Assembly (NCBI RefSeq): GCF_000179635.2
Contig: NC_014833.1
Location: forward strand, 3,240,001-3,272,000
DNA: 32,000 nt
DNA from: Ruminococcus albus 7 = DSM 20455
GTDB taxonomy: Bacteria; Bacillota; Clostridia; Oscillospirales; Ruminococcaceae
Reading direction: 5' to 3'
Below are positions 203-32,000 of the stretch, piece after piece. The notes under the pieces were generated by a model. The model ran no database searches, had not been told where the DNA came from, and saw only the letters and a list, made by a program, of their open reading frames with translations. A program made the position numbers and the translations under genes. Every line of letters starts with the position of its first letter. The stretch's first letter is position 1.

Positions 203-877
203 ATGTTCCAGATACTTGTTGTTGAGGACGATGCAAGCCTTCGCCGCCTGATGAGTGCTGCACTGAAGCAGAACGGATACCAGCCATTCACCGCCAGCGA
301 CGGCATTGAAGCCCTTGATATGCTGGAAAAGACCAATATAGATCTGATCATATCGGATATAATGATGCCCAATATGGACGGTTATGAGCTTACACGTCAG
401 CTCAGGAATGCTAATTTTCAGATGCCTATTATAATGGTAACTGCAAAAGAAAGCTTCGAGGATAAAAAGATCGGGTTCGATGCGGGCACTGATGATTATA
501 TGGTCAAGCCCATTGATATCAATGAGATGATACTGCGTGTCGGTGCACTCCTGAAAAGATCGAAGCTCGCAAGCGAGCACACCATGACCGTCGGCAACTG
601 TGTACTTGACTACGATGCACAGACGGTAGCCTTTGACGGTCAGCAGGGTGAAACTATACCACAGATGGAGTTTAAGCTGCTTTTCAAGCTGCTGTCATAC
701 CCAAACAAGATATTCACCCGCAGGCAGCTGCTGGACGAGCTTTGGGGCATGGATAAGGACGTTGACGAAAGAACGGTAGATGTTCACATCAAACGTCTGC
801 GTGAACGCTACGGCAGTGCTGAAGCGTTCTCCATAGTAACAGTCAGAGGACTGGGATATAAGGCGGTAAAACAGTGA
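203..877 (+). CDS. OmpR/PhoB-family response regulator (receiver domain plus winged-helix DNA-binding domain)
   Basis: The N-terminus ILVVEDD...DLIISDIMMPNMDG...VTAK is a classic receiver domain. The C-terminus FKLLFKLLSYPNKIFTRRQLLDELWG...RTVDVHIKRLRERY...VRGLGYK is the OmpR trans_reg_C signature. The stop overlaps the start of the downstream kinase. Confidence 0.92.
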   Translation: MFQILVVEDDASLRRLMSAALKQNGYQPFTASDGIEALDMLEKTNIDLIISDIMMPNMDGYELTRQLRNANFQMPIIMVTAKESFEDKKIGFDAGTDDYMVKPIDINEMILRVGALLKRSKLASEHTMTVGNCVLDYDAQTVAFDGQQGETIPQMEFKLLFKLLSYPNKIFTRRQLLDELWGMDKDVDERTVDVHIKRLRERYGSAEAFSIVTVRGLGYKAVKQ

Positions 878-2244
878 AAAAAGCAACAAAGAATACCCCG
901 CCCCTTTCGTTAAAGCCTGTCAGACATCCGCCCAAGCAGCGCATGACCATGCAGTTCAAGCTGGCTATGATGTTCTTTATAGTAATGTTCATATCCGCCA
1001 GCATCTCCGTGAGTGTACTGCTGCTGATATTCAGCCCTGTGATGAAAGAGAACGCTGTCACTCAGATGTCTGCCTTTGCAGCATCCGCCAAGGAACTGCA
1101 GAATGATAAGAATTATGATTTTGAGCGGATAGTTTTTCTGCTGAACAATTCTTCTTATGATATCACTGTCCTTAAAGACGATGACAAGGAATTGCTGGCT
1201 AACAAGGAAGAGATCGACTCTACGGGATACTATATAAACACTGAGGGCATAATACCCAGTGCAATCATGATAACCAAGATAAAAGACAGATACGTCCGCG
1301 TGAATACTTTCAACAGCGAAAATATTTTCTGGATAGTCAATCTCGTGACTATCGTGGCGTTCATGTCCAGTATAATGCTCGGTACGATAATCACTACTTT
1401 CGTGGGCCGTACCATGCTGCAGCCCATACATGATCTGAGTATGGCGACCTCAGAAGTCGCAAGGGGCAACTTCTCTGTAAGGGTCCGTGAGAACGGTTCG
1501 GATGAGTACGGTACTCTCCAGCGCAACTTCAACAAAATGGCACAGGAACTTTCGGGTATCGAGACCCTTCGCGGTGACTTCATATCCAACGTATCCCACG
1601 AATTCAAAACTCCCCTTGCTTCCATACAGGGCTTTGCAAAGCTTTTGCAGAACCCCACTCTCAGCATGGAGGAAAGAGACGAGTATACACAGATAATCAT
1701 TGATGAAACTTCCAGACTTTCAAAGCTTTCATCGAACATACTCAATCTTACAAAGCTGGAAAACCAGACAACTATCGGCAAGAAGAAGCGTTTCCACATA
1801 GATGAGCAGATACGAAAGATCATACTTATGCTTGAACCCGAATGGTCAAAAAAGGATATTGATATGGATATCGACCTTGAAGATATCATATACGTCGGCA
1901 ACGAAGACCTTATGGGGCAGATATGGCAGAACATTATAAACAACGCAATAAAGTTCACACCGCAGGAAGGACAGATCAAAGTAACACTGTTCCGCGGAGA
2001 GATGGGTGTAGTTACCAAAATATGGGATAACGGTCCACAGATACCCGCAGATAAAAAAGACAAGATCTTTGAGAAATTCTATCAGGGTGACCGTTCAAGC
2101 GCCACCGAGGGCAACGGACTTGGTCTTGCGCTGGTAAAGAGGATCGTCGATCTTGCTGACGGAAAGATATCCGTTGACAACCCCTTTGAAGGCGGTGTGG
2201 TATTCACTGTGGAACTTCCCTATCAGATAGAGGATATGATGTAA
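874..2244 (+). CDS. Sensor histidine kinase (2 TM segments, HAMP, HisKA, HATPase_c)
   Basis: The GTG start overlaps the regulator stop (GTGA). There are two hydrophobic segments. HAMP-like region MLQPIHDLSMATSEVARGNF, H-box FISNVSHEFKTPL, N-box NNAIKFT, G-boxes DNGPQIP and GNGLGLALV. Confidence 0.92.
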   Translation: MKKATKNTPPLSLKPVRHPPKQRMTMQFKLAMMFFIVMFISASISVSVLLLIFSPVMKENAVTQMSAFAASAKELQNDKNYDFERIVFLLNNSSYDITVLKDDDKELLANKEEIDSTGYYINTEGIIPSAIMITKIKDRYVRVNTFNSENIFWIVNLVTIVAFMSSIMLGTIITTFVGRTMLQPIHDLSMATSEVARGNFSVRVRENGSDEYGTLQRNFNKMAQELSGIETLRGDFISNVSHEFKTPLASIQGFAKLLQNPTLSMEERDEYTQIIIDETSRLSKLSSNILNLTKLENQTTIGKKKRFHIDEQIRKIILMLEPEWSKKDIDMDIDLEDIIYVGNEDLMGQIWQNIINNAIKFTPQEGQIKVTLFRGEMGVVTKIWDNGPQIPADKKDKIFEKFYQGDRSSATEGNGLGLALVKRIVDLADGKISVDNPFEGGVVFTVELPYQIEDMM

Positions 2245-3759: not shown

Positions 3760-3872
3760 GTATTCACAGCCCTGACAAGAATAAAATATATGCATCCGTC
3801 GATATGCCCGCGCCGAATCGCCCCGTCGGTTAAATGCATATCATACAGATGCGTGATCGCAGGAGGGAGAAA

Positions 3873-4379
3873 ATGAACAGAAATACCAACAAAAAGGATG
3901 TCCTTGATTCACTGGACATATACACCTATATTGCCGAGCTTATAAACATACCCCTTGGTGATGCTACCAGGATGAACGGTCATACCCATAATGACAGTAT
4001 AGCAAGCACACGCTCCAAAGAGTTCTCGCTTTACCGTTCACTGTGCAGGAATGAAGCCTGTGTAAGGCAGCATCTTATGGATCTGCTGGTGCGCACCGCC
4101 AGGGCAGAAAAGAAAAACGCTCCGTATCTGCCCCTTTTGCGTGCCGAGATACGCGATGATACCGTAAGGCTCGCTGACCTCACCATGCGCCGCAAAAGGC
4201 TGGAGGACAGACGTGACAGCCTAAAAGGCATAGCGAAGCTGGCTGTACAGTACCGCTATTTTGAAGACCTTGACCGCCGCATACCCAAATGGAGCGAAAC
4301 TGCCGCAGTGCTTGGTATAGCCCTGAGCGGTGAAGAGCTCCGCAAATACGTATGCAGTCAGTTCCGCGATATGAAATGA
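3873..4379 (+). CDS. Hypothetical Arg-rich protein (169 aa) with a possible C-terminal HTH; putative SOS-regulated
   Basis: The ATG at 3873 is preceded by AGGAGGGAG (3861-3869). The track start at 3834 has no RBS. The C-terminal segment YRYFEDLDRRIPKWSETAAVLGIALSGEELRKYV resembles region-4-like HTHs of small phage-type activators (ArpU/DUF1492-like). That resemblance is not verified. Confidence 0.6.
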   Translation: MNRNTNKKDVLDSLDIYTYIAELINIPLGDATRMNGHTHNDSIASTRSKEFSLYRSLCRNEACVRQHLMDLLVRTARAEKKNAPYLPLLRAEIRDDTVRLADLTMRRKRLEDRRDSLKGIAKLAVQYRYFEDLDRRIPKWSETAAVLGIALSGEELRKYVCSQFRDMK

Positions 4380-4450: not shown

Positions 4451-5551
4451 TTACTGCATATCTGTATTGCGGTTTTTAAGCAGCTTCTGCCTTTTGCGCT
4501 CATGCATATCCATGTATACCTTCTCGGCAAAGTCAACTATCTTCTTCATTATGGGTCTGAATGTATAGAAGTACTCACCCGCATAGGTAACAACTTCACC
4601 GTTAAAGCCCTTCTTGAACTTGTATACACCGTAGTTGGGGTTGGTTTCGTCCTTGTAGAAAGGTATGCCCATGAAGTCGTAGATATCGCAGTTGCCCTCA
4701 AGCGCCCAGTTTATCATAGTCCACTGCATCAGATAGTTGGGGTAGAGGTTTCTGTGGTGGTTTGCGGATGCACCGTATACATAACAGGTCTTGCCGGCAT
4801 ACTGTGTAGTAACCGCACCCGAAAGAGGTATCTTCTTACCGTCCTCATCTACATAGCACATAAACAGGTGGCAGTGGTCTTTTCCAAGACCCTCTATGAA
4901 CTTTACAAAGTAATCCTTGCCTCTTATGGAGAAGCCGTCGCGGATACCCGTAGCTTCCATCATAGGGTAGAAATCATCCAGCGCCTCAGTGCCGCATATC
5001 TCGCAGTAAACACCCTTTTTAGGACCTTTTCTGATACGGTTTCTCCAGTCGGGCTTGAACGACTGCATTACCTCATCGGCGGTCTTGCCCTTTATATCGC
5101 GGAGCATATAGTTGTTTCTCGCCTGTATGGTAGTCAGCTCGGGAGCATCGTCGATATGAGAGAATCCCATATCCGTTATCAGCTTTGAACGATCCCTCTC
5201 CTTTTCCTCAAAGGGCGGATCCCACATGAACTGATATGCGCGGTACTTCTTCGCCAGTACCTTTATGCCCTCAAACAGATCGGTCATTACTTCCTTATCG
5301 CTCCAGTCGCAGACAGGACCGTGTGGCGCATACAGGAATGTTGTGGGGAAGATCGGTATATTCTTTATTATAACAAGACAAGTACCTCTTATCTTACCGT
5401 CAGCGCCTCGTGATATTACTGCATCCCAGCCCCAGTTATCCTTGACCTTGGGCCATCTCAGCGACTGCATGAAGTTTCCGTACTCGCTGTTCTTCGCAAA
5501 ATTTTCGTACTCTTTAAGCAGTTCTTTGTTTTTCTTATCTATTATTTCCAT
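4451..5551 (-). CDS. FemAB-family peptidoglycan interpeptide-bridge aminoacyltransferase (lipid II:aminoacyl-tRNA transferase)
   Basis: The length of 366 aa and the N-terminal FMQSLRWPKVKDNWGWD...LYAPHGPV are typical of FemX/MurM/FemAB (PF02388-like). Confidence 0.8.
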   Translation of the reverse strand: MEIIDKKNKELLKEYENFAKNSEYGNFMQSLRWPKVKDNWGWDAVISRGADGKIRGTCLVIIKNIPIFPTTFLYAPHGPVCDWSDKEVMTDLFEGIKVLAKKYRAYQFMWDPPFEEKERDRSKLITDMGFSHIDDAPELTTIQARNNYMLRDIKGKTADEVMQSFKPDWRNRIRKGPKKGVYCEICGTEALDDFYPMMEATGIRDGFSIRGKDYFVKFIEGLGKDHCHLFMCYVDEDGKKIPLSGAVTTQYAGKTCYVYGASANHHRNLYPNYLMQWTMINWALEGNCDIYDFMGIPFYKDETNPNYGVYKFKKGFNGEVVTYAGEYFYTFRPIMKKIVDFAEKVYMDMHERKRQKLLKNRNTDMQ

Positions 5552-14909: not shown

Positions 14910-15866
14910 TCAATAGAATGTCGCAACTTCCTGTGCAGGTGCCTCGGCAGGTGTAAGTTCCTCTACCACCAGTACAGGGCCCTTGCCCTTGTACAGCTTA
15001 TGCTTCTGCATCTTGACGGTGAAAGTCGCATTGAACCACTTGGGCCTGGTAAGGTCTATCTCCTTATCGTAAAGGGTCGCAAGCCAGCAGAATGTTATAT
15101 CCTCCACACAGCAGGTCATTATCTTCCTGCCCAGTGCGATAGTACCCTTTGGGAACTTCGGATTCATCGCCGCCATAGCTTTCAGCTTTATACGCTTGCC
15201 GTCATACTTTTCGGGCTCCTCGTTGATATCCCTGTACCACAGTGCGTAGTCCCTGTCCTCAACAACTATGGTATCAGCGTTTATATCAAAGGGCAGAGGA
15301 TCTTCGATATCATCGTACTCCGATGTACCGTCGGTACACTCATAAGCGATATCGCAGCGCCTGCTTACACCTCTTACTATCTTGTGGAACTCCATTTTGT
15401 CCATAGCCGCCTTGTCAAAGCGGTTGAACACGGTAAGCTCGCAGTTGGAAAGCTTATCCACCACCAGTGATCTCATGTTCTGATTGTAGTTCATGAACGT
15501 AGTAGCATCCACGAAATTCATTATCTGGTAGATCGCCCAGTTATCGGGCAGGGCATTCAGCAGATCGTTCATCGTCCACATACCGTTGTACTCTATCATT
15601 ACTCTCTGACCGTGTACCTCGGTATACAGCTTCTGCAGATTGATAGGGTTCAGTTCGTCCTTATCCTCTATAACACGGGGATAGATATGGCTCTTATCGA
15701 AGTCCTTGGTGTCGTACTCCTCCATGCCCTCCTCGCATATAAGCAGAAGTGTCCTGTCGCCGTTGTTGAAACGCCTGTCCTCAAGGGTCTGCTTTATAAA
15801 GGAGGTCTTGCCGCCCTCCAGGAATCCCGTGAACAGGTACACGGGGATAAAATTATCTTCATTCAT
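14910..15866 (-). CDS. Divergent COG0523/G3E-family P-loop GTPase paralog lacking the CxCC metal motif
   Basis: N-terminal P-loop YLFTGFLEGGKTSF. CEEGMEEYD stands in place of the ENEFG motif. There is a Walker-B-like MIEYNG and an NRFD (NKxD-like) motif. No CxCC is present after the P-loop. This is the last gene of the three-gene minus-strand operon. Confidence 0.7.
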   Translation of the reverse strand: MNEDNFIPVYLFTGFLEGGKTSFIKQTLEDRRFNNGDRTLLLICEEGMEEYDTKDFDKSHIYPRVIEDKDELNPINLQKLYTEVHGQRVMIEYNGMWTMNDLLNALPDNWAIYQIMNFVDATTFMNYNQNMRSLVVDKLSNCELTVFNRFDKAAMDKMEFHKIVRGVSRRCDIAYECTDGTSEYDDIEDPLPFDINADTIVVEDRDYALWYRDINEEPEKYDGKRIKLKAMAAMNPKFPKGTIALGRKIMTCCVEDITFCWLATLYDKEIDLTRPKWFNATFTVKMQKHKLYKGKGPVLVVEELTPAEAPAQEVATFY

Positions 15867-15934
15867 TTTCAGTTTACTCTCCCGAATATAATCTAGTACG
15901 GGCTATATCCGCCCGAAGTATCTGTTGCATACCG

Positions 15935-17203
15935 TCAGAACGGCACCATTCCGTCAGGGTCATAGGATTCAAACTGGTCCTTTTCCGCAACAGGCACGAA
16001 CTTGCCCATGCCGCCGTCAGGCACAAATGTCATGCAGCAGTAATACTCATGCTCGCACTCATAGTCAGGCAGCACCAGCTTTTCAGACGAACCGCGTGCG
16101 ATATCGTACTGGTCAAGCAGCACCGAGCCGCTCTCCTTTTGGAGTATGCACTGCAGACCGCCGATCTCCAGACCGCCCTTCACCCTGCAAAGGGTACCGC
16201 TTGCATCAAAGTAGTCGAACTCCACCGTTTCACCGCGGCTGAGTGCGCCTATCTCCTCAGGTGTGAATATGTGTCCGCACCATACGCCGGAAAATCTCAC
16301 AGGGCATCTCAGCGCCTGCATCATGTATTTATCCAGGTCGCGTTCAAGCACTTCGCTGCTGAAGGTATCATAGAGAAAATCCATATCGAACAGCTGCTCA
16401 GCCACCTTTTTAAGATCCATATCCTTAGGCATGGAGAAGCTGCTCAGTGTCACCGTAAGATCTCCCGAAGCAAGACTTCTCTCGTACAGGAACCTGTACT
16501 CCCCAAGGCTGTTTTTCAGCGGTATATAGCTGCCGTCATTGTAGTGTATAACACAGCCGCCGTATTTTGACGAAGCCTTTTTAAGCTCATAACCGTAGTA
16601 AGCCGCAGGCTGTCCGCTCTCGGAGAACTCCTTGCCTACCACCTCGATTATGCCCCCGCCCAGCAGACGGTTCAGCGCTGCCGCATCGGGGAGCTCCCTG
16701 CAGAGGAAGCTCATCTCAACGAGCTCGCCCTCGTTGTATATATACAGGGTCTTCTTGTCGAACTCGGTTATCTTCGGCACGTACTTCCCCGGAAATACAT
16801 CGGGCACGAATTCGTATTCGGCAGTATTGTACAGCTTGTAGCTTGAATTGAAAGACACGTTGAAGGGGTCTATCTCCTTCTGTATCTTTTTAAGGCTTCC
16901 CGTCACGGTATATATCTTGTCGCCCTCGACCGAATCGAAGGTGATGCTTCCGCCGTCACACAGCACGGATATCTCATCTTCGGTGAATATATGTCCGTGC
17001 CACACTCCGCTGAACTGTGCGTCCTCGCCGTCCATGCTGAACTTTACCGTGACCCTTTCAAAGATCCTGCCGTTCAGCTCGCTGCTGTACTCGAATCTCT
17101 CTCCGCCGTTATCAAAAGGCGCATACTTCGTGCTGCCGTCCTCTCCCTGAAAGCTTCTGGGATAAAACTGATCCTTCCTGATCTCGTGATTTGACTTTTC
17201 CAT
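15935..17203 (-). CDS. Hypothetical protein (422 aa) with an internally duplicated module
   Basis: AAGGAGG RBS. Two copies of a module: VKFSMDGEDAQFSGVWHGHIFTEDEISVLCDGGSITFD (about aa 53-90) and VRFSGVWCGHIFTPEEIGALSRGETVEFD (about aa 302-330). No signal peptide or TM segment. Confidence 0.7.
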   Translation of the reverse strand: MEKSNHEIRKDQFYPRSFQGEDGSTKYAPFDNGGERFEYSSELNGRIFERVTVKFSMDGEDAQFSGVWHGHIFTEDEISVLCDGGSITFDSVEGDKIYTVTGSLKKIQKEIDPFNVSFNSSYKLYNTAEYEFVPDVFPGKYVPKITEFDKKTLYIYNEGELVEMSFLCRELPDAAALNRLLGGGIIEVVGKEFSESGQPAAYYGYELKKASSKYGGCVIHYNDGSYIPLKNSLGEYRFLYERSLASGDLTVTLSSFSMPKDMDLKKVAEQLFDMDFLYDTFSSEVLERDLDKYMMQALRCPVRFSGVWCGHIFTPEEIGALSRGETVEFDYFDASGTLCRVKGGLEIGGLQCILQKESGSVLLDQYDIARGSSEKLVLPDYECEHEYYCCMTFVPDGGMGKFVPVAEKDQFESYDPDGMVPF

Positions 17204-17258
17204 GCTGTAACCTCCTTTTCGGTATATGATTTTTTCAGCCGTATTTTATAATATTGTC

Positions 17259-18455
17259 TTACTGCACACCGAACAGCTCTGCAACAGCTTCTTCCTTGAG
17301 CTCTGCACCAATAACACAAAGTCTGCCTATGGTGCTTGCCGAGCCTGTTCTTACATCGGGCACACCGGGAACATAGTCATAGTGTATCCATGTGCCGTCA
17401 GTACCCTCTACGATGCCCTTTGCACGCAGAACATAGCCGTACTTCTTCTCATCCTCAAGTGCCTCCAGCGCTGCACGTATCTCATCGGCTGTGAACTTCT
17501 TTGCAGTTTCTCTGCCCCAGCTGGTGAATACTTCATCTGCATGGTGGTGGTGATGATCGTGGTCGTGGCAGCCGCAGGTGCAGTGCTCGTCATGTTCGTG
17601 GTGATGATGCTCGTGCTCATCGTGATCGTGGTGATGATGCTCATGCTCGTCGTGATCGTGGTGGTGATGCTCATGGTCATGGTCGTGATCATGGCAGCCG
17701 CAGGTGCAGTCCTCGCCGTGTTCGTGATGGTGGTGCTCATGCTCATCTTCGTCATGGTCATGGTGGTGATGATGATGCTCATGCTCATCTTCGTCGTGGT
17801 CATGGTGATGATGATGCTCATGCTCCTCTTCAAGCAGAGCCTTCAGCTCGTCATCAAGAGTATTCTTCTGTGTCATGGCATCAGTGAGCTGCTTGCCTGT
17901 CAGCTTGTCCCACTCGGTAGTAACTATGGGAGCCTTGTCGTTCAGGGCGCGGAGCCTTGCTACCACATCGTCCAGTCTTTCCTGAGGAACACCTGTGGTA
18001 TGGCTGAGGATAAGGCAGCTTGCATAGGTTATCTGGTTGTTGAAGAACTCACCGAAATTCTTCTGATACATCTTGCACTTAGCAGCATCAACAACAGTTG
18101 TGAAACCGTCCAGTACAACATCGTGTGCGTGGATATCCTGCACTGCCTTGATAACATCGCTGAGCTTGCCCACGCCCGATGGCTCTATGAGTATACGGTC
18201 GGGCTTGTAGGTATCAAGCACCTGGACAAGTGCCTTGCCGAAATCGCCCACCAGTGAGCAGCATATACAACCTGAATTCATCTCAGTTATCTCAACGCCT
18301 GCATCCTGCAGGAATCCGCCGTCAATACCTATCTGACCGAATTCATTCTCTATAAGTACGAGTTTTTTGCCGTTGTAGCCCTCAGCGATGAGTTTCTTTA
18401 TCAGCGTGGTCTTGCCTGCGCCCAGGAAGCCGCTGAAAATGGTGATCTTGGTCAT
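17259..18455 (-). CDS. COG0523 (CobW/ZigA/YjiA-like) metallochaperone GTPase with a 98-aa His-rich insertion
   Basis: P-loop FSGFLGAGKTTL, then IENEFG, the CxCC motif GCICCS and Walker B ILIEPSG. Residues 209-306 are almost entirely H/D/E and include two CTCGCHDHDH motifs. A CobW_C-like tail follows (VLRAKGIV...RLCVIG). Confidence 0.9.
   Translation of the reverse strand: MTKITIFSGFLGAGKTTLIKKLIAEGYNGKKLVLIENEFGQIGIDGGFLQDAGVEITEMNSGCICCSLVGDFGKALVQVLDTYKPDRILIEPSGVGKLSDVIKAVQDIHAHDVVLDGFTTVVDAAKCKMYQKNFGEFFNNQITYASCLILSHTTGVPQERLDDVVARLRALNDKAPIVTTEWDKLTGKQLTDAMTQKNTLDDELKALLEEEHEHHHHHDHDEDEHEHHHHHHDHDEDEHEHHHHEHGEDCTCGCHDHDHDHEHHHHDHDEHEHHHHDHDEHEHHHHEHDEHCTCGCHDHDHHHHHADEVFTSWGRETAKKFTADEIRAALEALEDEKKYGYVLRAKGIVEGTDGTWIHYDYVPGVPDVRTGSASTIGRLCVIGAELKEEAVAELFGVQ
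17538..17831 (-). repeat. Low-complexity coding repeat (His/Asp/Glu tract) with internal duplications
   Basis: GGCAGCCGCAGGTGCAGT occurs at 17566-17583 and again at 17693-17710, a period of 127 bp. Near-identical CTCATGCTCATCTTCGTC(A/G)TGGTCATGGTG units are tandem around 17736-17815. Confidence 0.85.
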
Positions 18456-25024: not shown

Positions 25025-27634
25025 TCAGCTGATGCCGGGAATGGGTGGGATATCTGTTACTGACAGCTGTTTCTTTCCTTTTGAATGTGCTGCTATCTTT
25101 GAAGTATCGGTAACATTCAGCTTTCCGTCACGGTTCACATCCGAAAGCATACGCTGCTCATCGTTTTTTGGCACGCGTTTACCTTTAGTGAATGCGGCTG
25201 ACATGGATGTATCCGTAACATTTACCAGACCGTCCTTGTTGATATCTCCGTACCTGAATATATCAGCCTTTACCGACACATAATCATCGCCTGCACTTAT
25301 CTCTGTCCTGACCGACATATATGATGATCTTGTTATCCAAACGGTGTACTCACCCTCGGGTAGGTTCGTATAGAGGGTGCCGTCAGCATTGGCGTACATT
25401 CTGGTAACTCCGCCGTCCTTATCGACGAATATCACCTCTGTATCGTTGCTGCCGCCTTTTATCAATATACCTGTATTGCAGTCTACATCAATAACATCAT
25501 CGCGCTGTTCGGGACCCTTGTAGTCCTCGGGGGATACTATGTTGAAATCCATCGCTGCTGTACCGCTGTGATTTTTCATACCCGTGACAGTGATAGTCGC
25601 CTTGCCGATACCCACATTGTTTGCATAGGCTACTGTGTAATCCTCGCCTTCAACAAGCGCCTCACCCGATACGGGACTTCTCAGCTCCAGCCTTATCATT
25701 ATCGGTCTGCCTGTGTACCTTACGTCCTCTATCCTGTCAACGCTCCAGGGATAGCCTATATCCGCGGGCTCTATCTTAAAACTATAGCTCCTGGTGCCGA
25801 GATAATCGCCCTCGCCCTTTATGGTCAGCTTACCTGTGCCCGCATTGATATTATCTTCAAGCTGAAGGGTATAGTCCTTGTCGTTCACAAGGGTGTAAGC
25901 GCCCTCCTTTATTGTGACCTTTGGCACTATGGCTCTGCCCGTATATATGAGCCCGTCGCTCTTAACAGTTATGTTCAGCTTGCTCAGCTGAACAGGCTCG
26001 CGCCTTTCTATGGCAAAATCAACTGTCTTGGTGCCGCTGAAATAGCCCTTGCCCTTTATTGTCAGCTTGGCAGTACCTACGTACACATTATCCTTGTAGC
26101 TAACAGTATAATCAGTGCCCTCAGTAAGACGTTTGCCGCCCGAATGCACCTTGATCTTAGGCTCTATCGCCTCTCCGCTGTACACGTACCTATCCTCTGC
26201 GAGCTCTATATCAGCCGCAGCAACGGAGGTCGCAGGCATAACTTCCCTGTCCACCTGCCTGCCGCATTCACTGCACACCCTGAATCTTGAACCTGCTTCC
26301 ATTTCCGTGGGAGCCTTCTCAACTATCCAGCTGCCCCTTGTATGCTTGTGGGTCACAGTCACCTTGGTGTATATATCATCAAAGGAATCATCGGCGGTAC
26401 CCTCATAGAGGTATACAACACCCTCCTTTTTGGCTGTGAAGTATATATTGCCGCCCGATTGTATCATATCAAAATAATCACGTATCCTGCCGCCTGTTTC
26501 GCAGTAGTTCCATATACGGTATCCGCCTGAGCTCAGTGGATGATCGTAACCTTTCAGCAGCATGGAAGTTCCAAGTTCTACTTCGTATTTGTCCTCGGGG
26601 AATCCGAGGGTATAATCGTCCGCATCCAGCAGATCGAAATAATTGACCTTGTAGCTTACAGGCTTTTCATTTCCGTCCTTGTCGTATATGCCGGTGACCC
26701 TGACATCAATAACATCGTTCCTCGGAAGTATGCCGGGGTTGAATATTATACAGTTGTTGTTGGATGTTATGTTGGCATCGCTCACGTTGAAATAACCCAC
26801 CAGCTTAGAAACATCGGAGGGTGAGTTCTTATCAAACGTAAATGTCTTGCCGAGAAGCTTAGATGTGAGTGTTACCTTTACCTTGTCCCTTTCGGGCTTG
26901 GAATATGTCTTGGTGTTCAGCGTAACCGAGTAGGCATAGCCGTTCTTGTTTTCACCAAGAAGCTCATAGGGCATATTCGCAGGCGGCCAGCAGATATAAT
27001 CACCCGTGAATTTTTCCTTGCGTGATTTATCCCTTACGTACATGGCAGTGCTGTCATAGACCGCACCAAGACCCGTCTTCTGCATATCTGGATTGAGCAG
27101 CCACCGTCTGTGTCCCAGTTTTGAGATATTGCTCTCATCGGTATCAGCCATATAACCCTCTGTTACCGAAGCCTGTATGTTCATATATCCCTTACCGATA
27201 TTCGATTCACCCGAGCCCTTGTAAGCCAGTTCGTATACAGCATCGCTCATGACCGCAGGTTTGGAAGGGGTATGACTAAGCACCTTGTTGATGTATATTA
27301 TCAGGCTTGCATTCTGCGCCAGTTCATTGTAGGTGCTGTCAAGCTCAACATCATAGGGCAGACCTGCCAGATATCGACAGAAGTTCACCGAATCCAGTCC
27401 GTCATCCAGGGTGTCCTGCTCCAGTTTTCCCGCGTAAGTCGGGTACTCAGCGGAGTAACCTTCACTGTACTGCGATACATCATGAAGATCGAAATACATC
27501 TTATTATACATATCCTTGATCTCTGCCTGCGTATGCCTTTCAAGGTCATAAGCATGCGCACCGATCATAGTGCCGCACAGTGCCGCTGATGCCACCGCAG
27601 CTGCAAGCAGATCCTTCATCAGCCTTTTAGTCAT
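25025..27634 (-). CDS. Secreted multidomain protein: CAP/YkwD-like domain, three Ig-like repeats, C-terminal type I dockerin
   Basis: The ATG at 27634 lies about 10 nt after AAGGAGGG; the track GTG at 27643 abuts the RBS. Signal peptide ...GTMIGAHA. CAP motif LGHRRWLLNPDMQKTGLG. Three repeats of about 65 aa (YSGEAIEPKIKV.., YTGRAIVPKVTI.., YTGRPIMIRLEL..) map to about 25535-26212. The dockerin duplicated Ca-binding loops DINKDGLVNVTD and DVNRDGKLNVTD map to about 25070-25255. Confidence 0.85.
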   Translation of the reverse strand: MTKRLMKDLLAAAVASAALCGTMIGAHAYDLERHTQAEIKDMYNKMYFDLHDVSQYSEGYSAEYPTYAGKLEQDTLDDGLDSVNFCRYLAGLPYDVELDSTYNELAQNASLIIYINKVLSHTPSKPAVMSDAVYELAYKGSGESNIGKGYMNIQASVTEGYMADTDESNISKLGHRRWLLNPDMQKTGLGAVYDSTAMYVRDKSRKEKFTGDYICWPPANMPYELLGENKNGYAYSVTLNTKTYSKPERDKVKVTLTSKLLGKTFTFDKNSPSDVSKLVGYFNVSDANITSNNNCIIFNPGILPRNDVIDVRVTGIYDKDGNEKPVSYKVNYFDLLDADDYTLGFPEDKYEVELGTSMLLKGYDHPLSSGGYRIWNYCETGGRIRDYFDMIQSGGNIYFTAKKEGVVYLYEGTADDSFDDIYTKVTVTHKHTRGSWIVEKAPTEMEAGSRFRVCSECGRQVDREVMPATSVAAADIELAEDRYVYSGEAIEPKIKVHSGGKRLTEGTDYTVSYKDNVYVGTAKLTIKGKGYFSGTKTVDFAIERREPVQLSKLNITVKSDGLIYTGRAIVPKVTIKEGAYTLVNDKDYTLQLEDNINAGTGKLTIKGEGDYLGTRSYSFKIEPADIGYPWSVDRIEDVRYTGRPIMIRLELRSPVSGEALVEGEDYTVAYANNVGIGKATITVTGMKNHSGTAAMDFNIVSPEDYKGPEQRDDVIDVDCNTGILIKGGSNDTEVIFVDKDGGVTRMYANADGTLYTNLPEGEYTVWITRSSYMSVRTEISAGDDYVSVKADIFRYGDINKDGLVNVTDTSMSAAFTKGKRVPKNDEQRMLSDVNRDGKLNVTDTSKIAAHSKGKKQLSVTDIPPIPGIS

Positions 27635-27724
27635 TCCGGTCACCCTCCTTACTTTCGATCCCTTTGTTGTAAAAGGTCATGTTTGTGTTTATCAATATAG
27701 TGAATTTCCACTGGTATTATACTA

Positions 27725-27753
27725 ATTATAACACGTTTTAACTTCAAGTTCAA
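27725..27753 (-). promoter_or_regulatory. Candidate promoter (extended -10) for the dockerin protein gene
   Basis: Minus strand: TTGAAC (27753-27748), a 17 nt spacer, TGtTATAAT with TATAAT at 27730-27725. Confidence 0.5.
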
Positions 27754-27861: not shown

Positions 27862-27913
27862 ATATAAAACAAAATCAAGCTCAGAGGTCCTTGGCCAAAA
27901 CCTTTGAGCTTGA
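27862..27913 (-). terminator. Terminator after the GTPase-NYN gene (hairpin usable in both directions)
   Basis: A 13 bp stem TCAAGCTCAGAGG / CCTTTGAGCTTGA (one G-U pair). It is followed by TTTTGTTTT on the minus strand and by TCTTGTTGTTTTTT on the plus strand. Confidence 0.6.
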
Positions 27914-28101
27914 TCTTGTTGTTTTTTATAAAGTCGGGTTAAAAGTGGTAATTCTCAATGTTAAGCGGATACGGAGTTTTTTGTGTTCTCTGTATCTTAT
28001 GTATGTATTATATACCATTTTGCCCGAACGCACATCACCCAAAGTGACTAGATAATTGTAAACGTTTTGTTAACGAGTATTTTTCGTTATTCCGCCACTG
28101 A

Positions 28102-30678
28102 CTATTTCAGCCTTTTGGAATTCAGCTTCTCGATATACTCACGGACAGCCCTCTCGGAGGATTCCACCTCATGTTTAAGATCGCTCGCAGACATTCTCCG
28201 TGCGCCCGAACCCATGATTATAACCTGTTCCAGTCCGTCGGATGTCGCTACTGTTACGCGGTGATCCTTTGCCAGCTGATGCGCAGTCCTTTCGATATAG
28301 GTGTCAGCAGTTTCAGCCTCCTTGGTATACACCACGCTTACGCTGCCTGCCTTGTCGATATGTTCGGGTTCTTTAACGCGGTACGCATCGAAGACTATTA
28401 TCATCTCGCATCCCCTGCACCCCTGAAAACTGCTCAGGCGGTTTATCAGCGTGCTTCGCGCAAGGTCAAGACTTTCCGCCGCCTGCTTTTTAAGGTCGTC
28501 CCATGCGAATATTATATTGTATCCGTCCACAAGGAGATACTCGGGACCCGTTGGCACAGGGCGCGGCTTAGCTTTGGTCTTTGTGACCTCTTTCGGGGTA
28601 CGCATAGCATCACGTTTTTTGCGGTTTATGGAACCGTAGGTGCGCTCGAATATCGCCATGAGTTCCTCATCCTCAACTGCACGCCGTACAAAATCCACAG
28701 CGCGGGTGCGGACTTCCTCCGCCTGCTGATACTGCCGCCTGCCTGTTTCGGGGCTTACGTGCATATGTTCATCAGCTTCGCCCCACGGAACAACGTGTCC
28801 CGCACCGTGGGAACAGAATACGGAATCCGCAAAATTGTGGGTATCGGAATCTGGATCATAGCCTATCTCAGCGATGACCTCGTCAGCATCTATGCAGGTA
28901 TCATAGCCTGCCGCACGACAGCTAAGCCTTCCAAGCCCCTTGGTGTAGCCTGCCACCTCGGTATGATAGAACCTCAGCTTCGATACAGGGGCAGTACCCG
29001 TGAGAACAGCGTTTTCGCCGTCAGTCTCCGGGGGATCGCAGTGCGCCCCCATGCGGTCAAGGTCGGTGAGCGCCCTGCCCACATTAGCCGCAGGTATCTC
29101 CAGCCTGTAGGCATACCAAGGCTCCAGCAGGATACTTTTCGCCTTGCGCAGACCCTGCCTTACAGCGCGGTAAGTCGCCTGACGGAAATCTCCGCCCTCG
29201 GTATGTTTAAGGTGCGCACGTCCCGCAGTAAGAGTTATGCGCATATCCGTAATAGGCGAACAGGTCAGCACGCCGCGGTGAGTCTTCTCTTTCAGGTGGG
29301 TAAGTATCAGCCTCTGCCAGTTGCGGCTGAGGATATCCTCACTGCAGTCGCTGTAGAACTCCAGACCGCTTCCGCGGGGCAGGGGTTCAAGGCGCAGATG
29401 AACCTCGGCATAATGGCGCAAAGGCTCGAAATGACCTGCACCGTCCACGGGCTCAGCTATAGTTTCGCGGTAGGCTATGCGCCCCTCGCCAAGCTCGATA
29501 TCCATGCCAAAACGCTCGCTGACAATCCGCTTCAGCACCTCAGCCTGGACCTCGCCCATGAGCGCCGCTGTGACTTCGTGGAGCTGTTCATTGTAATTGA
29601 CGGTCATGGTGGGATCCTCATCTTCAAGGATCCTGAGCCTGCCAAGGAGTGTATGCTCGTCCACACCCTCGGGCGCTTTCACGCGGTAGGTAAGAACCGG
29701 TTCAAGTATCTGCTCGGTATCGGTAGGTTCAGCCCCAAGACCCTGTCCTGCAAACGTGGAAGTTAATCCCGGCACTGCACAGACCTCACCCTGAGAAACT
29801 TCCTCGGCATTTCTCGCTTTTTCGCCGCTGTACACCCTTATCCTGCCGACTTTCTCGGTGATCTCCTCACCCTCGCGGTCGGTATAGGTAAGCACATCTC
29901 TCACTGCCAGACTTCCGCCGGTTATCTTCATGTGGGTAAGTCTTGCGCCGCCGTCCTCGGTTATCTTGTATACCTTCGCGCCGAACCCGGACTTCTCCTC
30001 GGGAAGTGGGATATACCTTGAAACGCAGTCCAGCAGACCCTCAATGCCCTCCAGCCTGAGAGCAGAACCGAAGCAAACGGGTATCAGTCTTCTGCATTCA
30101 ATAGCCGATATCATTTTTTCATCGGTGATCTCACCGTTTTCAAGGTATTCCTCCATCATCTCCTCGGTACAGAGGGACAGGGCTTCATATAGTTCATCAC
30201 GGGGCTGAGCGAAGGAAACACATCTGTCGCCCATGGCAGCGGTCAGGGAGTTCATAACAAAATCCTTACGTGCACCGTCCATATCCATTTTATTAACGAA
30301 TACAAAAGTCGGTATATCATAGCGTTCCAGCAAACGTGCAAGGGTCTTGGTATGGGGCTGTACACCGTCGGTACCGCTGATGACCAGTATCGCCGCATCT
30401 ATCACCCTGAGAGTACGCTCGGTCTCGCCTGAAAAGTCAACGTGGCCGGGAGTATCCAGCAAAGTGAATCCCACTCCGCCGTACTCAAAGACTGCTTGTT
30501 TGGAGAATATTGTTATACCGCGATCACGCTCAATGGCATTATTATCAAGGAAAGCGTCCTTGTGATCCACCCTTCCGAGCTTGCGGATAGCCCCGCTTTT
30601 ATACAGCATAGCCTCCGATAGCGTTGTCTTGCCCGAGTCAACGTGGGCGAGTATGCCTATTACTGCTTTTTTGTTCAT
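28102..30678 (-). CDS. Translation-factor GTPase (TetM/EF-G-like, about 640 aa) fused to a C-terminal Rae1/YacP-type NYN ribonuclease domain
   Basis: G1 AHVDSGKT, G2 RGITI, G3 DTPGH and G4 NKMD, followed by an EF-G/TetM-like domain II-V body. Residues 641-711 form a basic linker. Residues 712-835 carry LLVDGYN, IVFDA, ETADTYIE and VATSD, which match the conserved blocks of B. subtilis YacP/Rae1. The 858 codons form one uninterrupted ORF. Confidence 0.9.
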   Translation of the reverse strand: MNKKAVIGILAHVDSGKTTLSEAMLYKSGAIRKLGRVDHKDAFLDNNAIERDRGITIFSKQAVFEYGGVGFTLLDTPGHVDFSGETERTLRVIDAAILVISGTDGVQPHTKTLARLLERYDIPTFVFVNKMDMDGARKDFVMNSLTAAMGDRCVSFAQPRDELYEALSLCTEEMMEEYLENGEITDEKMISAIECRRLIPVCFGSALRLEGIEGLLDCVSRYIPLPEEKSGFGAKVYKITEDGGARLTHMKITGGSLAVRDVLTYTDREGEEITEKVGRIRVYSGEKARNAEEVSQGEVCAVPGLTSTFAGQGLGAEPTDTEQILEPVLTYRVKAPEGVDEHTLLGRLRILEDEDPTMTVNYNEQLHEVTAALMGEVQAEVLKRIVSERFGMDIELGEGRIAYRETIAEPVDGAGHFEPLRHYAEVHLRLEPLPRGSGLEFYSDCSEDILSRNWQRLILTHLKEKTHRGVLTCSPITDMRITLTAGRAHLKHTEGGDFRQATYRAVRQGLRKAKSILLEPWYAYRLEIPAANVGRALTDLDRMGAHCDPPETDGENAVLTGTAPVSKLRFYHTEVAGYTKGLGRLSCRAAGYDTCIDADEVIAEIGYDPDSDTHNFADSVFCSHGAGHVVPWGEADEHMHVSPETGRRQYQQAEEVRTRAVDFVRRAVEDEELMAIFERTYGSINRKKRDAMRTPKEVTKTKAKPRPVPTGPEYLLVDGYNIIFAWDDLKKQAAESLDLARSTLINRLSSFQGCRGCEMIIVFDAYRVKEPEHIDKAGSVSVVYTKEAETADTYIERTAHQLAKDHRVTVATSDGLEQVIIMGSGARRMSASDLKHEVESSERAVREYIEKLNSKRLK

Positions 30679-30744: not shown

Positions 30745-30773
30745 ATTGTAACATATTTGTTTGAAATTGTAAA
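30745..30773 (-). promoter_or_regulatory. Candidate promoter (extended -10) for the GTPase-NYN gene
   Basis: Minus strand: TTTACA (30773-30768), a 17 nt spacer, TGtTACAAT with TACAAT at 30750-30745. Confidence 0.45.
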
Positions 30774-30797: not shown

Positions 30798-30830
30798 TAA
30801 AAAAGGACCGAGCCTTTCGACTCGGTCCTT
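30798..30830 (-). terminator. Rho-independent terminator after tuf
   Basis: A 10 bp stem AAGGACCGAG / CTCGGTCCTT with an 8 nt loop. On the minus strand it is followed by TTTTT. Confidence 0.75.
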
Positions 30831-30855: not shown

Positions 30856-32000
30856 TTATTCGTTGATAGCAGTAACAACGCCGGAACCTACAGTTCTACC
30901 ACCCTCACGGATAGCGAAACGCAGACCCTCTTCAATAGCGATAGGAGTGATCAGCTCAACGTCCATAGTTACGTTATCACCAGGCATGCACATCTCCTTG
31001 TCAGCAGGCAGAGAGATGATACCGGTAACGTCAGTTGTTCTGAAATAGAACTGAGGTCTGTAGTTGTTGAAGAAAGGAGTATGACGGCCGCCCTCTTCCT
31101 TCTTCAGAACGTAAACCTGACCGCTGAACTTAGTGTGGGGGTGAATGGAGCCGGGCTTACAAAGAACCTGACCTCTTTCAACCTGATCTCTTGTGATACC
31201 ACGGAGCAGAGCGCCGATGTTATCACCAGCCATAGCGGAATCCAGAGTCTTTCTGAACATCTCGATACCGGTTACAACTGTGGACTGCTTCTCATCAGAC
31301 AGACCAACGATCTCAACGGTCTCACCAGTGTTCAGAACACCTCTCTCAACTCTACCTGTAACAACGGTACCACGGCCGGAGATGGTCATAGTATCCTCAA
31401 CAGGCATCAGGAAAGGCTTAGCGTCGTCTCTCTCAGGAGTAGGAATGTACTCGTCAACAGCGTCCATCAGCTTGATGATAGGCTCGTAAGCAGGATCGCT
31501 CAGGTCATCGGGAGCTTCAAGAGCAGCCAGAGCAGAACCAACGATGATAGGAGTATCATCGCCAGGGAAATCATAAGAGCTCAGCAGATCTCTGATATCC
31601 ATCTCAACCAGCTCGAGCAGCTCAGGATCGTCAACCTGGTCAGCCTTGTTCATGAATACAACGATTGCAGGAACGCCAACCTGACGAGCCAGCAGGATGT
31701 GCTCTCTTGTCTGAGCCATAGGGCCGTCAGAAGCAGCACAAACCAGGATAGCGCCGTCCATCTGAGCAGCACCTGTGATCATGTTCTTAACGTAGTCAGC
31801 GTGGCCGGGGCAGTCAACGTGAGCATAGTGTCTCTTATCAGTCTCATACTCAACGTGAGCGGTATTGATTGTGATACCTCTCTCTCTCTCCTCGGGAGCC
31901 TTATCGATCATGTCATAAGCCTCAAACTTAGCCTGACCCTTCATAGCCAGTGTCTTGGTGATAGCAGCTGTCAGGGTAGTCTTACCGTGGTCAACGTGAC
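30856..32000 (-). CDS. tuf: Elongation factor Tu (5-prime end runs off the window)
   Basis: [18 protein letters not shown] is encoded at 31945-32000, upstream of the track's internal Met. [16 protein letters not shown], and the C-terminal domains II and III are unmistakably EF-Tu. Codon usage is strongly biased, with third positions favouring C/T and frequent GGT and CGT. Confidence 0.97.

Follow-up and report, generated by a model that had tools for sequence, protein, structure and literature searches.

A translational GTPase fused to a Rae1/YacP-type nuclease in Ruminococcus albus 7: domain anatomy, family spread and a possible action at stalled ribosomes

What could a translational GTPase do with an mRNA nuclease attached to its C-terminus? 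The question is raised by a gene of Ruminococcus albus 7 that lies on the minus strand of the stretch of 32,000 nucleotides analyzed here, the window (NC_014833.1, positions 3,240,001–3,272,000; coordinates are counted from the window start). A sequence-only reading of the window had described the gene product as a TetM/EF-G-type GTPase (EF-G, elongation factor G) fused in frame to an NYN endoribonuclease of the Rae1/YacP type, and had suggested a device, gated by GTP, by which selected ribosomes would receive an mRNA nuclease. This device is still the best hypothesis, with its geometry on the ribosome revised. As judged by its conserved motifs, the gene product is a motif-intact translational GTPase, followed by a partly structured, length-constrained module of about 120 residues and by a Rae1/YacP NYN domain with an intact active site. 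With somewhat less than even confidence, we propose that the GTPase would dock on a stalled or collided ribosome and that the tethered nuclease would cut the mRNA at the ribosome boundary.

The open reading frame (ORF) is a single uninterrupted one, as had been described. It begins with ATG at the high-coordinate end of 28102–30678 and encodes 858 amino acids, all of which are identical to the R. albus 7 RefSeq protein YP_004106010.1 (858/858). In a collection of 5.8 billion proteins, the 120 best homologues are all full length (120/120), with about 850 residues and the same domain set down to 57% identity. Three findings exclude a sequencing artefact as the source of the fusion: the identity to the RefSeq protein, the full length of the 120 best homologues, and the joint ORF of both modules at 76 of 80 species-level loci. 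The stop codon or frameshift between the two halves that the sequence-only reading had considered as a source of error was not found, and the identity to RefSeq together with the 76 fused loci rules out a frameshift or mis-assembly as the origin of the fusion.

The Pfam profiles of the GTPase, of EFG_IV and EFG_C and of NYN_YacP (PF05991) all match this one polypeptide. The GTP_EFTU profile covers residues 6–224 (E=2.7e-50), EF-G_D2 gives a weak match at residues 238–311, and EFG_III (326–397), EFG_IV (399–514) and EFG_C (517–595) follow. Conservation was assessed in a family alignment of 25 members at 57–100% identity and in a separate species-level set of 73 proteins. All five G motifs are invariant in the 25-member alignment, namely G1 AHVDSGKTT (11–19), G2 GIT (54–56), G3 DTPGH (75–79) with the catalytic His79, G4 NKxD (129–132) and G5 GSAL (204–207), and the GTPase and NYN motifs are present in 72–73 of the 73 species-level proteins. 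Residues 1–640 had been taken for a complete GTPase; the five-domain body is there, but the canonical body ends at about residue 595.

The nuclease half is equally well defined. The NYN_YacP profile matches residues 715–855 (E=6.6e-47) with 160 bits against a gathering cut-off of 24.6, a significant match of the kind that the sequence-only reading had expected at the C-terminus. The C-terminal 145 residues align with the sequence of the Bacillus subtilis YacP/Rae1 crystal structures 5mq8/5mq9 (E=2e-27). The blocks LLVDGYN, VFDA, ETAD..IE and ATSD are all found; VDGYN and ETAD are present in 73/73 species-level proteins and VFDA in 72/73. The acidic residues D718, D764, E789/D792 and D814, whose loss had been named as evidence against a nuclease, are invariant in the 25-member alignment and align with D7, D53, E78/D81 and D104 of B. 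subtilis Rae1. The domain had been placed at residues 712–835, a range that holds all the conserved blocks, but it extends to about residue 857.

The architecture itself is not new; it is already known for exactly this protein. Atkinson et al. (2015; BMC Genomics, PMC4342817) listed Tet proteins with NYN_YacP in their Additional file 8, in which the first sequence is YP_004106010.1, so that the window protein (858/858) is a member of the published Tet-NYN_YacP set. They found the fusion in ten species, classed the GTPase as Tet and speculated on a new resistance mechanism. TetM-NYN_YacP fusions in some Clostridia were discussed again by Matelska et al. (2017; NAR, PMC5499597), with the role left open, while Engelen (2012; PMC3814617) mentioned YacP but contained nothing on the fusion. 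The novelty implied by the sequence-only reading is thereby not supported; its statement that no characterized protein is known with this GTPase-Rae1 architecture stands, since none turned up in the searchable literature. The fusions of Atkinson et al. (2015) and Matelska et al. (2017) are the same thing as the protein described here, and those papers recorded the architecture only. What goes beyond them is that the GTPase fails the Tet-defining tests, that the family is far larger, and that unfused orthologues have been identified.

The kind of GTPase was examined with NCBIfam models at their curated cut-offs (NF012153 tet_protect, TIGR00484 and NF009381). The top match, NF012153, scores 414 bits where its cut-off demands 775. 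All models made for one protein, Tet(M), (O), (W) or (Q), lie far under their own cut-offs, and the EF-G models reach 297 bits against 659 (TIGR00484) and 338 bits against 583 (NF009381). Identity of the GTPase is 28–31% to Tet(M), Tet(O), Tet(W) and TetB(P) and about 27% to EF-G. Membership in the EF-G/EF2-like branch of the translational GTPases is supported by G1–G5, by the histidine of DTPGH, by domains II–V, and by a Foldseek search with the full AlphaFold2 (AF2) model, which returned EF-G structures only (probability 1.0). With EF-G, the protein shares the fold, the G motifs, domains II–V and a tip-loop histidine that aligns with the conserved EF-G tip histidine. It differs from EF-G in that the G' insertion is nearly absent (a gap of about 45 residues, leaving an insertion smaller even than in Tet proteins), in a loop I of domain IV that is 4 residues shorter and reads HFEPLRHY without GGRGQ, in its sub-cut-off score, and in the additional C-terminal module and nuclease.

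With the Tet proteins, the likeness consists of a five-domain EF-G-like body of about 640 residues, the reduced G' insertion and the top NCBIfam model. The differences lie in the functional elements. Compared with Tet proteins, loop I is shorter by 2 residues, and tip loop III of domain IV has neither the Tet motif YYSPVSTPADFR nor the EF-G motif SYHDVDSNEMAFK but a sequence of its own in which nearly every position is invariant. The Y-S-P-V-S-T-P of Tet loop III contacts the tetracycline site, as is known from the cryo-electron microscopy (cryo-EM) literature on TetM and TetO. In the window protein, the segment aligned to it is AHLKHTEGG, with KHTEGG standing in place of YSPVSTP, and an SP[VA]STP motif occurs in 0/73 fusion-family members but in each of Tet(M), Tet(O), Tet(W) and TetB(P). 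The Tet C-terminal helix RRPNSRIDKVRYMF after domain V is also replaced, by an unrelated conserved module of 45 residues that leads into the tether and the NYN domain. By these comparisons, the GTPase is a distinct subfamily, neither EF-G nor Tet and roughly equidistant from both, and 'TetM-type' does not hold as a functional label.

These features bear directly on the role raised by Atkinson et al. (2015; PMC4342817) and carried by the NCBI product name, which is ribosomal protection against tetracycline or another antibiotic combined with RNase activity. The tet_protect match, the small G' insertion and the 'TetM/TetW/TetO/TetS family' name of some records speak for it. However, besides the sub-cut-off score, the low identity and the missing loop III and helix, the gene is chromosomal and solitary, without a mobile-element or resistance-cassette context at any locus, and the family is ancient and vertically spread over Clostridia and Lactobacillaceae. 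The fusion protein is very probably not a tetracycline-resistance determinant, and antibiotic protection with added RNase activity is, as a role, highly improbable.

In databases, family members are named 'TetM/TetW/TetO/TetS family tetracycline resistance ribosomal protection protein' or 'Tetracycline resistance protein TetM from transposon Tn916', and others 'elongation factor G' or 'translation factor GTPase family protein'. The sequence features do not support the names that imply resistance, and resistome counts from metagenomes of gut and rumen could be inflated by them. Hundreds of genomes of gut and rumen Clostridia and of Lactobacillaceae bear the TetM/TetW/TetO/TetS label, which is very probably wrong, and this matters for resistome surveys.

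Between the GTPase body and the nuclease there are three elements. The first, residues 596–640, has the conserved residues C595, Y607, D612, N615, SVFCxHGxG (619–627), W632 and H640; the unfused orthologues of Lactobacillaceae have it as well, while Tet proteins and EF-G lack it. Residues 641–711 had been described as a Lys/Arg-rich linker. Of this stretch, 645–681 is instead predicted to be helical, with the invariant residues D670, E672, L673, I676, F677, E678, T680, Y681 and G682, while about 684–713 is disordered and basic, as had been supposed, with 10 K/R and 5 P in 30 residues. The 35 residues ahead of the NYN domain are net-basic in 73/73 family members, and the spacing from the C-terminal module to the NYN domain has a median of 92 residues, mostly 87–100, among the same 73. 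Such narrow, basic spacing suggests a defined geometry and not a random leash.

The 596–640 module has low AF2 confidence (predicted local distance difference test score, pLDDT, 48–65) and no Pfam match, and the Foldseek search with the full model returned nothing informative for residues 596–713. C595, C622 and H640 are conserved in it. H624 is invariant in the 25-member alignment, which is centred on Ruminococcaceae, and is G, Q or N in members from Lachnospiraceae, C. thermocellum and Desulfitobacterium. A zinc site in this module was considered and is unsupported, H624 being replaced in several lineages; the module may bind a metal or contact the ribosome.

How widespread is the fusion? 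An exhaustive HMMER search covered 1.84 billion representatives of clusters at 50% identity and gave 150 best matches, nearly all of which have 830–1000 residues and match through the NYN end at 40–58% identity. Because nearly all of the best 150 are of fused length through the NYN end, the fused form comprises, by this count, well over a hundred clusters at 50% identity. A species scan with one genome per species gave at least 597 NYN-encoding loci, and the best 80 were kept. All of the best 80 are from Clostridia apart from one contig of a metagenome-assembled genome (MAG) labelled 'Alloprevotella', and they include Ruminococcus, Oscillospiraceae, Acutalibacteraceae, Ruminiclostridium, Monoglobus and Lachnospiraceae (Coprococcus, Blautia, Anaerobutyricum). 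The sequence-only reading had called for a comparison of fused with split genes in Clostridia; among these 80 loci, the GTPase motifs and the NYN domain share one ORF in 76, two are cut by contig ends, and two have adjacent or overlapping ORFs. As this pattern indicates, selection keeps GTPase and nuclease together across a very large clade.

Several loci of the scan deserve separate mention. The two loci with two ORFs are both from MAGs (L018, 21–2426, with 568+226 aa; L038, 523–3017, with 651+217 aa) and could be natural gene fissions or assembly frameshifts. The locus labelled Alloprevotella sp. (contig CAVEPP010000094.1) is the only non-Firmicute one among the best 80 and lies on a MAG contig of 6.7 kb; its fused gene has an NYN domain 57% identical to that of the window protein, and it is most likely a binning contaminant, not a Bacteroidota occurrence. 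In the plasmid-collection search for a standalone yacP, the Agathobacter and Monoglobus replicons showed the fused copy only. The copy on a plasmid-labelled replicon of Agathobacter rectalis (L006, 3983–6784) encodes a protein of 933 aa with a much longer tether and a low-complexity Thr/Ala/Asp-rich insertion of about 25 residues between G2 and G3, and it adjoins a BrnT/CopG toxin-antitoxin pair. No extra domain was found in the long family members (up to 1156 aa), which have just G-domain insertions or longer tethers.

The GTPase also exists without the nuclease. An unfused orthologue of 644 residues, 45% identical, is encoded on the megaplasmid pMP118 of L. salivarius (WP_164920261), and chromosomal unfused orthologues of 640–665 residues occur in Companilactobacillus, Levilactobacillus, Paucilactobacillus, Pediococcus, Lactiplantibacillus and Limosilactobacillus. 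These Lactobacillaceae 'translation factor GTPase family' proteins resemble the fusion in their 45% identity, in a tip loop with an HT.GGDFR core and in the C-terminal module. Unlike the fusion, they end after that module, without tether or NYN domain; they too are uncharacterized. Their genes are solitary as well, with variable neighbors that are never yacP at the loci inspected.

The reading of such a protein depends on what Rae1 does, and the view of Rae1 biology has changed, in part through Deves et al. The sequence-only reading had taken it as established that Rae1 cleaves mRNA at the ribosomal A site. In the original 2017 model, Rae1 was indeed docked into the A site, but this A-site cutting model was withdrawn by its own authors in 2025. 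Free Rae1 is now known to cut the mRNA just behind the leading ribosome of a disome, and it generates substrates of transfer-messenger RNA (tmRNA) on collided ribosomes, which feed trans-translation (Tetreault et al., 2026 preprint, PMC13622287). How Rae1 recognizes its ribosome is stated there to be unknown, and no ribosome-bound structure exists, binding being transient. The GTPase fusion is not mentioned in these recent Rae1 papers (Deves et al.; Tetreault et al., PMC13622287). The connection between Rae1 and a GTPase seems under-appreciated, though the architecture has been in print since 2015.

The NYN half of the fusion belongs to the same NYN_YacP fold family as B. subtilis Rae1/YacP (PDB 5MQ8/5MQ9), with about 44% identity over 144 residues and the acidic active-site residues in common, and it probably shares the chemistry and the substrate class of Rae1, ribosome-associated mRNA. 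In contrast to Rae1, which is free, of about 170 residues and transient on ribosomes, the fusion NYN is the C-terminus of an 858-residue GTPase, and its mode of recruitment is presumably built in and GTP-controlled.

[quoted passage not shown] In favor of this, GTPase and nuclease form one covalent chain, members of the GTPase family dock at the A-site/GTPase centre, and the 2017 model of Rae1 pointed the same way. Against this, besides the withdrawal of that model, stands the expected position of domain IV. From the homology with EF-G and TetM, domain IV and its invariant tip would be expected in the 30S A site, with no room left there for an NYN domain of 145 residues, which would be excluded from it. 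Delivery into the A site is thus quite improbable.

The proposal of a cut at the ribosome boundary keeps the GTP-gated docking and moves the nuclease. In its GTP form, the GTPase half would occupy the factor-binding site of a ribosome whose A site can be reached. This would be a stalled ribosome or, after a collision, the trailing one, which is rotated and unable to translocate. Docking of this kind is supported by the Foldseek result and by the matches of the N-terminal 648 residues to ribosome-bound EF-G (256 bits), TetO (241 bits) and TetM (232 bits), which cover all five domains. Domain IV, with the invariant KHTEGGDFR tip, would probe the decoding site or occupy the 30S A site, and the basic tether would set the NYN domain on the mRNA outside the decoding centre, likely where the mRNA enters the bound ribosome. 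For a disome, this would put the nuclease just behind the leading ribosome, on the stretch that free Rae1 cuts. Cleavage would leave a truncated mRNA to be rescued by trans-translation, and GTP hydrolysis would release the factor. Under this mechanism, SmrB of E. coli, Cue2 of yeast and MutS2 of B. subtilis would be analogues, as they recognize stalled or collided ribosomes, and SmrB and Cue2 cut the mRNA at the ribosome boundary and feed rescue (PMC13622287). They are unlike the fusion in having the unrelated SMR nuclease fold, in binding the 30S-30S interface and not the GTPase-factor site, and in lacking a GTPase module.

Several points weigh against the boundary-cut proposal. The ribosome state recognized and the RNA cut are both pure inference, and no functional study of any fusion-family member was found in full-text literature searches. 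The AF2 model has a pLDDT of 76.7, and its predicted template modelling score (pTM) of 0.47 makes the inter-domain geometry unreliable. Whether the fusion is a Rae1 orthologue or a specialized paralogue hinges on standalone yacP in the same genomes. Furthermore, B. subtilis Rae1 works without such a GTPase, hence the GTPase is not intrinsically needed for Rae1-type cleavage, and the unfused GTPase of the Lactobacillaceae indicates a role of its own, which need not involve a nuclease.

A further-reaching version of the boundary-cut proposal, doubtful but worth stating, takes the GTPase subfamily as the missing recognition module of the Rae1 (CART) collision pathway. It would dock in the factor site of the trailing non-translocating ribosome, or of a stalled one, and would license one inter-ribosome mRNA cut by GTP binding and hydrolysis, as one polypeptide in Clostridia and, in Lactobacillaceae, as a GTPase cooperating in trans with free Rae1. 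If this is true, the fusion would be a natural Rosetta stone and, locked with GDPNP or by H79A, the first tractable handle for visualizing a Rae1-type nuclease on the ribosome. The fusion could be locked with non-hydrolysable GTP for cryo-EM, and the question of Rae1 recognition is explicitly open (PMC13622287). The large conserved family of Rae1-GTPase proteins is strong comparative evidence on the place, relative to the ribosome, at which a Rae1-type nuclease can act. The 2025–2026 revision of the Rae1 mechanism makes the fusion more informative than it was at its first description, and it may point to nuclease positioning on stalled or collided ribosomes.

Assembly or hibernation of ribosomes is the task of many GTPases that bind them, EF-G-like ones included, and the nuclease could also be directed at stable RNA. 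The fusion would then serve rRNA or tRNA maturation, a ribosome-assembly checkpoint or regulated ribosome destruction, with the NYN domain cutting the rRNA of immature, idle or damaged ribosomes. YacP was first predicted to act in rRNA/tRNA processing, from its operon with mrnC and rlmB (PMC4342817, PMC5499597, PMC3814617), and the unfused orthologue of L. salivarius adjoins an alternative S14 gene. However, the experimentally defined Rae1 substrates are all translated mRNAs, cleaved in a translation-dependent manner, and the fusion gene has no conserved link to rRNA-processing genes, the rpsN neighborhood being found in one species only. The gltX-cysS-mrnC-rlmB-yacP-sigH neighborhood was not found at any fusion locus, and in the window the neighbors are tuf and a gene for a dockerin protein. 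A role on rRNA or tRNA is unlikely.

The L. salivarius locus has an arrangement of its own (L005, about 3796–3982). The unfused GTPase gene is divergent from rpsN, which encodes an S14 paralogue, and from a gene for a 'putative metal homeostasis protein', and the shared intergenic region contains the perfect palindrome AGTAATCATTACT. We take this palindrome to resemble the Zur box of Firmicutes, and it probably regulates rpsN. In three other Lactobacillaceae loci, the arrangement of rpsN and palindrome beside the unfused GTPase was not seen.

The genomic context was also informative on a role in defense, in which the protein would be a self-contained toxin or an anti-phage abortive-infection effector that shuts down translation when triggered. 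Toxin-antitoxin genes adjoin at three loci (PemK, BrnT/CopG and, beside an unfused orthologue, YafQ/RelB), a type I-C CRISPR-Cas cluster adjoins at one, and a role of Rae1 against phage mRNA has been speculated on (PMC13622287). However, PADLOC-DB gave 0 families at E<=0.01, no defense or toxin-antitoxin family is recurrent among the 125 flanking ORFs of the species scan, and no cognate antitoxin was found. The gene is present as a single chromosomal copy per locus examined across hundreds of species, in a housekeeping-like manner, and in R. albus at the end of the str operon. Among the roles considered, that of a toxin or phage-defense effector is the least credible.

The other fused loci point to the same solitary character. 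Seven of them have unrelated neighbors (among them PemK toxin, adh_short and DegV, PfkB, CRISPR cas3 with BipA, BrnT/CopG, and CotJ). By Pfam annotation of the 125 flanking ORFs, no conserved partner exceeds 6/125, the commonest being TrmO, and tuf is not enriched. No recurrent transposase, integrase or efflux partner was found at the loci inspected, where the gene is chromosomal and in variable housekeeping contexts. Solitary, chromosomal, without a conserved neighbor and without a mobile-element context, the fusion gene is housekeeping in character.

In R. albus, the gene follows tuf, which ends the rpsL-rpsG-fusA-tuf (str) operon; in another R. albus genome, the order is rpoC, sigma factor, rpsL, rpsG, fusA, tuf and fusion gene, with downstream genes that differ from those of the window. 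The sequence-only reading had placed the gene immediately downstream of tuf and had drawn a parallel to yacP near the translation gene cluster of Bacillus. The distance is indeed short, 177 bp from the end of tuf, but this interval contains a strong terminator and a promoter-like site (Table 1), and the parallel is not supported, as the adjacency is confined to R. albus and its lineage and none of the other genomes inspected shows it. An operon with tuf is ruled out by the intervening terminator and promoter-like site and by the lineage-specific adjacency. Because it has its own promoter-like site and flanking terminators, the fusion gene looks monocistronic. A check for an RNA leader or riboswitch gave no Rfam family and no tRNAs in the whole window.

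Table 1. Features of the fusion gene and its surroundings in the window (residue numbers refer to the 858-residue protein)
Feature	Coordinates	Strand	Basis or remark
tuf (EF-Tu), 5' end cut by window edge; neighbor, not part of the unit	30856..32000	-	ORF scan
Intrinsic terminator of tuf, 12-bp stem with 7 G-C pairs, then T-run	30803..30830	-	Sits between tuf and fusion gene
Promoter-like site TTTACA-17 nt-TACAAT with TG extension, 10/12 matches, about 65 nt upstream of ATG	30745..30773	-	Consensus match only
Fusion gene, 858-codon ORF and stop codon, EF-G/Tet-like GTPase with Rae1/YacP NYN	28102..30678	-	ORF scan, Pfam, homologues, YP_004106010.1 identity
G domain, residues 1–224	30007..30678	-	Pfam, family alignment
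Domain II, residues about 233–315, beta-barrel	29734..29982	-	Pfam, AF2
Domain III, residues 326–397	29488..29703	-	Pfam
Domain IV, residues 399–514; A-site-probing domain in EF-G and Tet proteins	29137..29484	-	Pfam, alignments
Loop I of domain IV, residues 413–428, GAGHFEPLRHYAEVHL			
Domain IV tip loop III, residues 486–500, G-R-A-H-L-K-H-T-E-G-G-D-F-R-Q	29179..29223	-	Alignments
Loop III compared: Tet(M)/(O)/(W) GLYYSPVSTPADFR; TetB(P) GEFFSPASTPADFR; EF-G GSYHDVDSNEMAFK; fusion family GRAHLKHTEGGDFR			Nearly invariant in fusion family
Domain V, residues 517–595	28894..29130	-	Pfam
Family-specific C-terminal module, residues 596–640	28759..28893	-	Alignments, AF2
Predicted helical pair, residues 645–681, conserved DEELMxIFERTYG	28636..28746	-	Alignment, AF2
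Disordered Lys/Arg/Pro-rich tether, residues about 684–713	28540..28629	-	AF2, composition
NYN_YacP (Rae1-type) endonuclease domain, residues 714–857	28108..28539	-	Pfam, Rae1 alignment
Terminator-like hairpin and U-run, about 190 nt past the stop codon, -30.6 kcal/mol, z = -8.2	27866..27920	-	Folding

The remaining genes of the window that were annotated are of other kinds. The dockerin gene directly downstream (25025–27643, minus strand) encodes a secreted protein of 872 aa in which a type I dockerin at the C-terminus is the single Pfam domain; it has its own promoter-like site (27725–27753) and is a cellulosome-type component typical of R. albus. At 14910–18455 (minus strand), two genes for CobW-domain GTPases (one of 318 aa that has DUF1980 as its C-terminal domain, the other of 398 aa) flank an ORF of 422 aa without a Pfam match, forming a putative metal-chaperone cluster. 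The regions 203–2244 (plus strand) and 4451–5551 (minus strand) hold a pair of OmpR-type response regulator and histidine kinase and a gene for a FemAB-family peptidyl-transferase, which are unrelated to the fusion.

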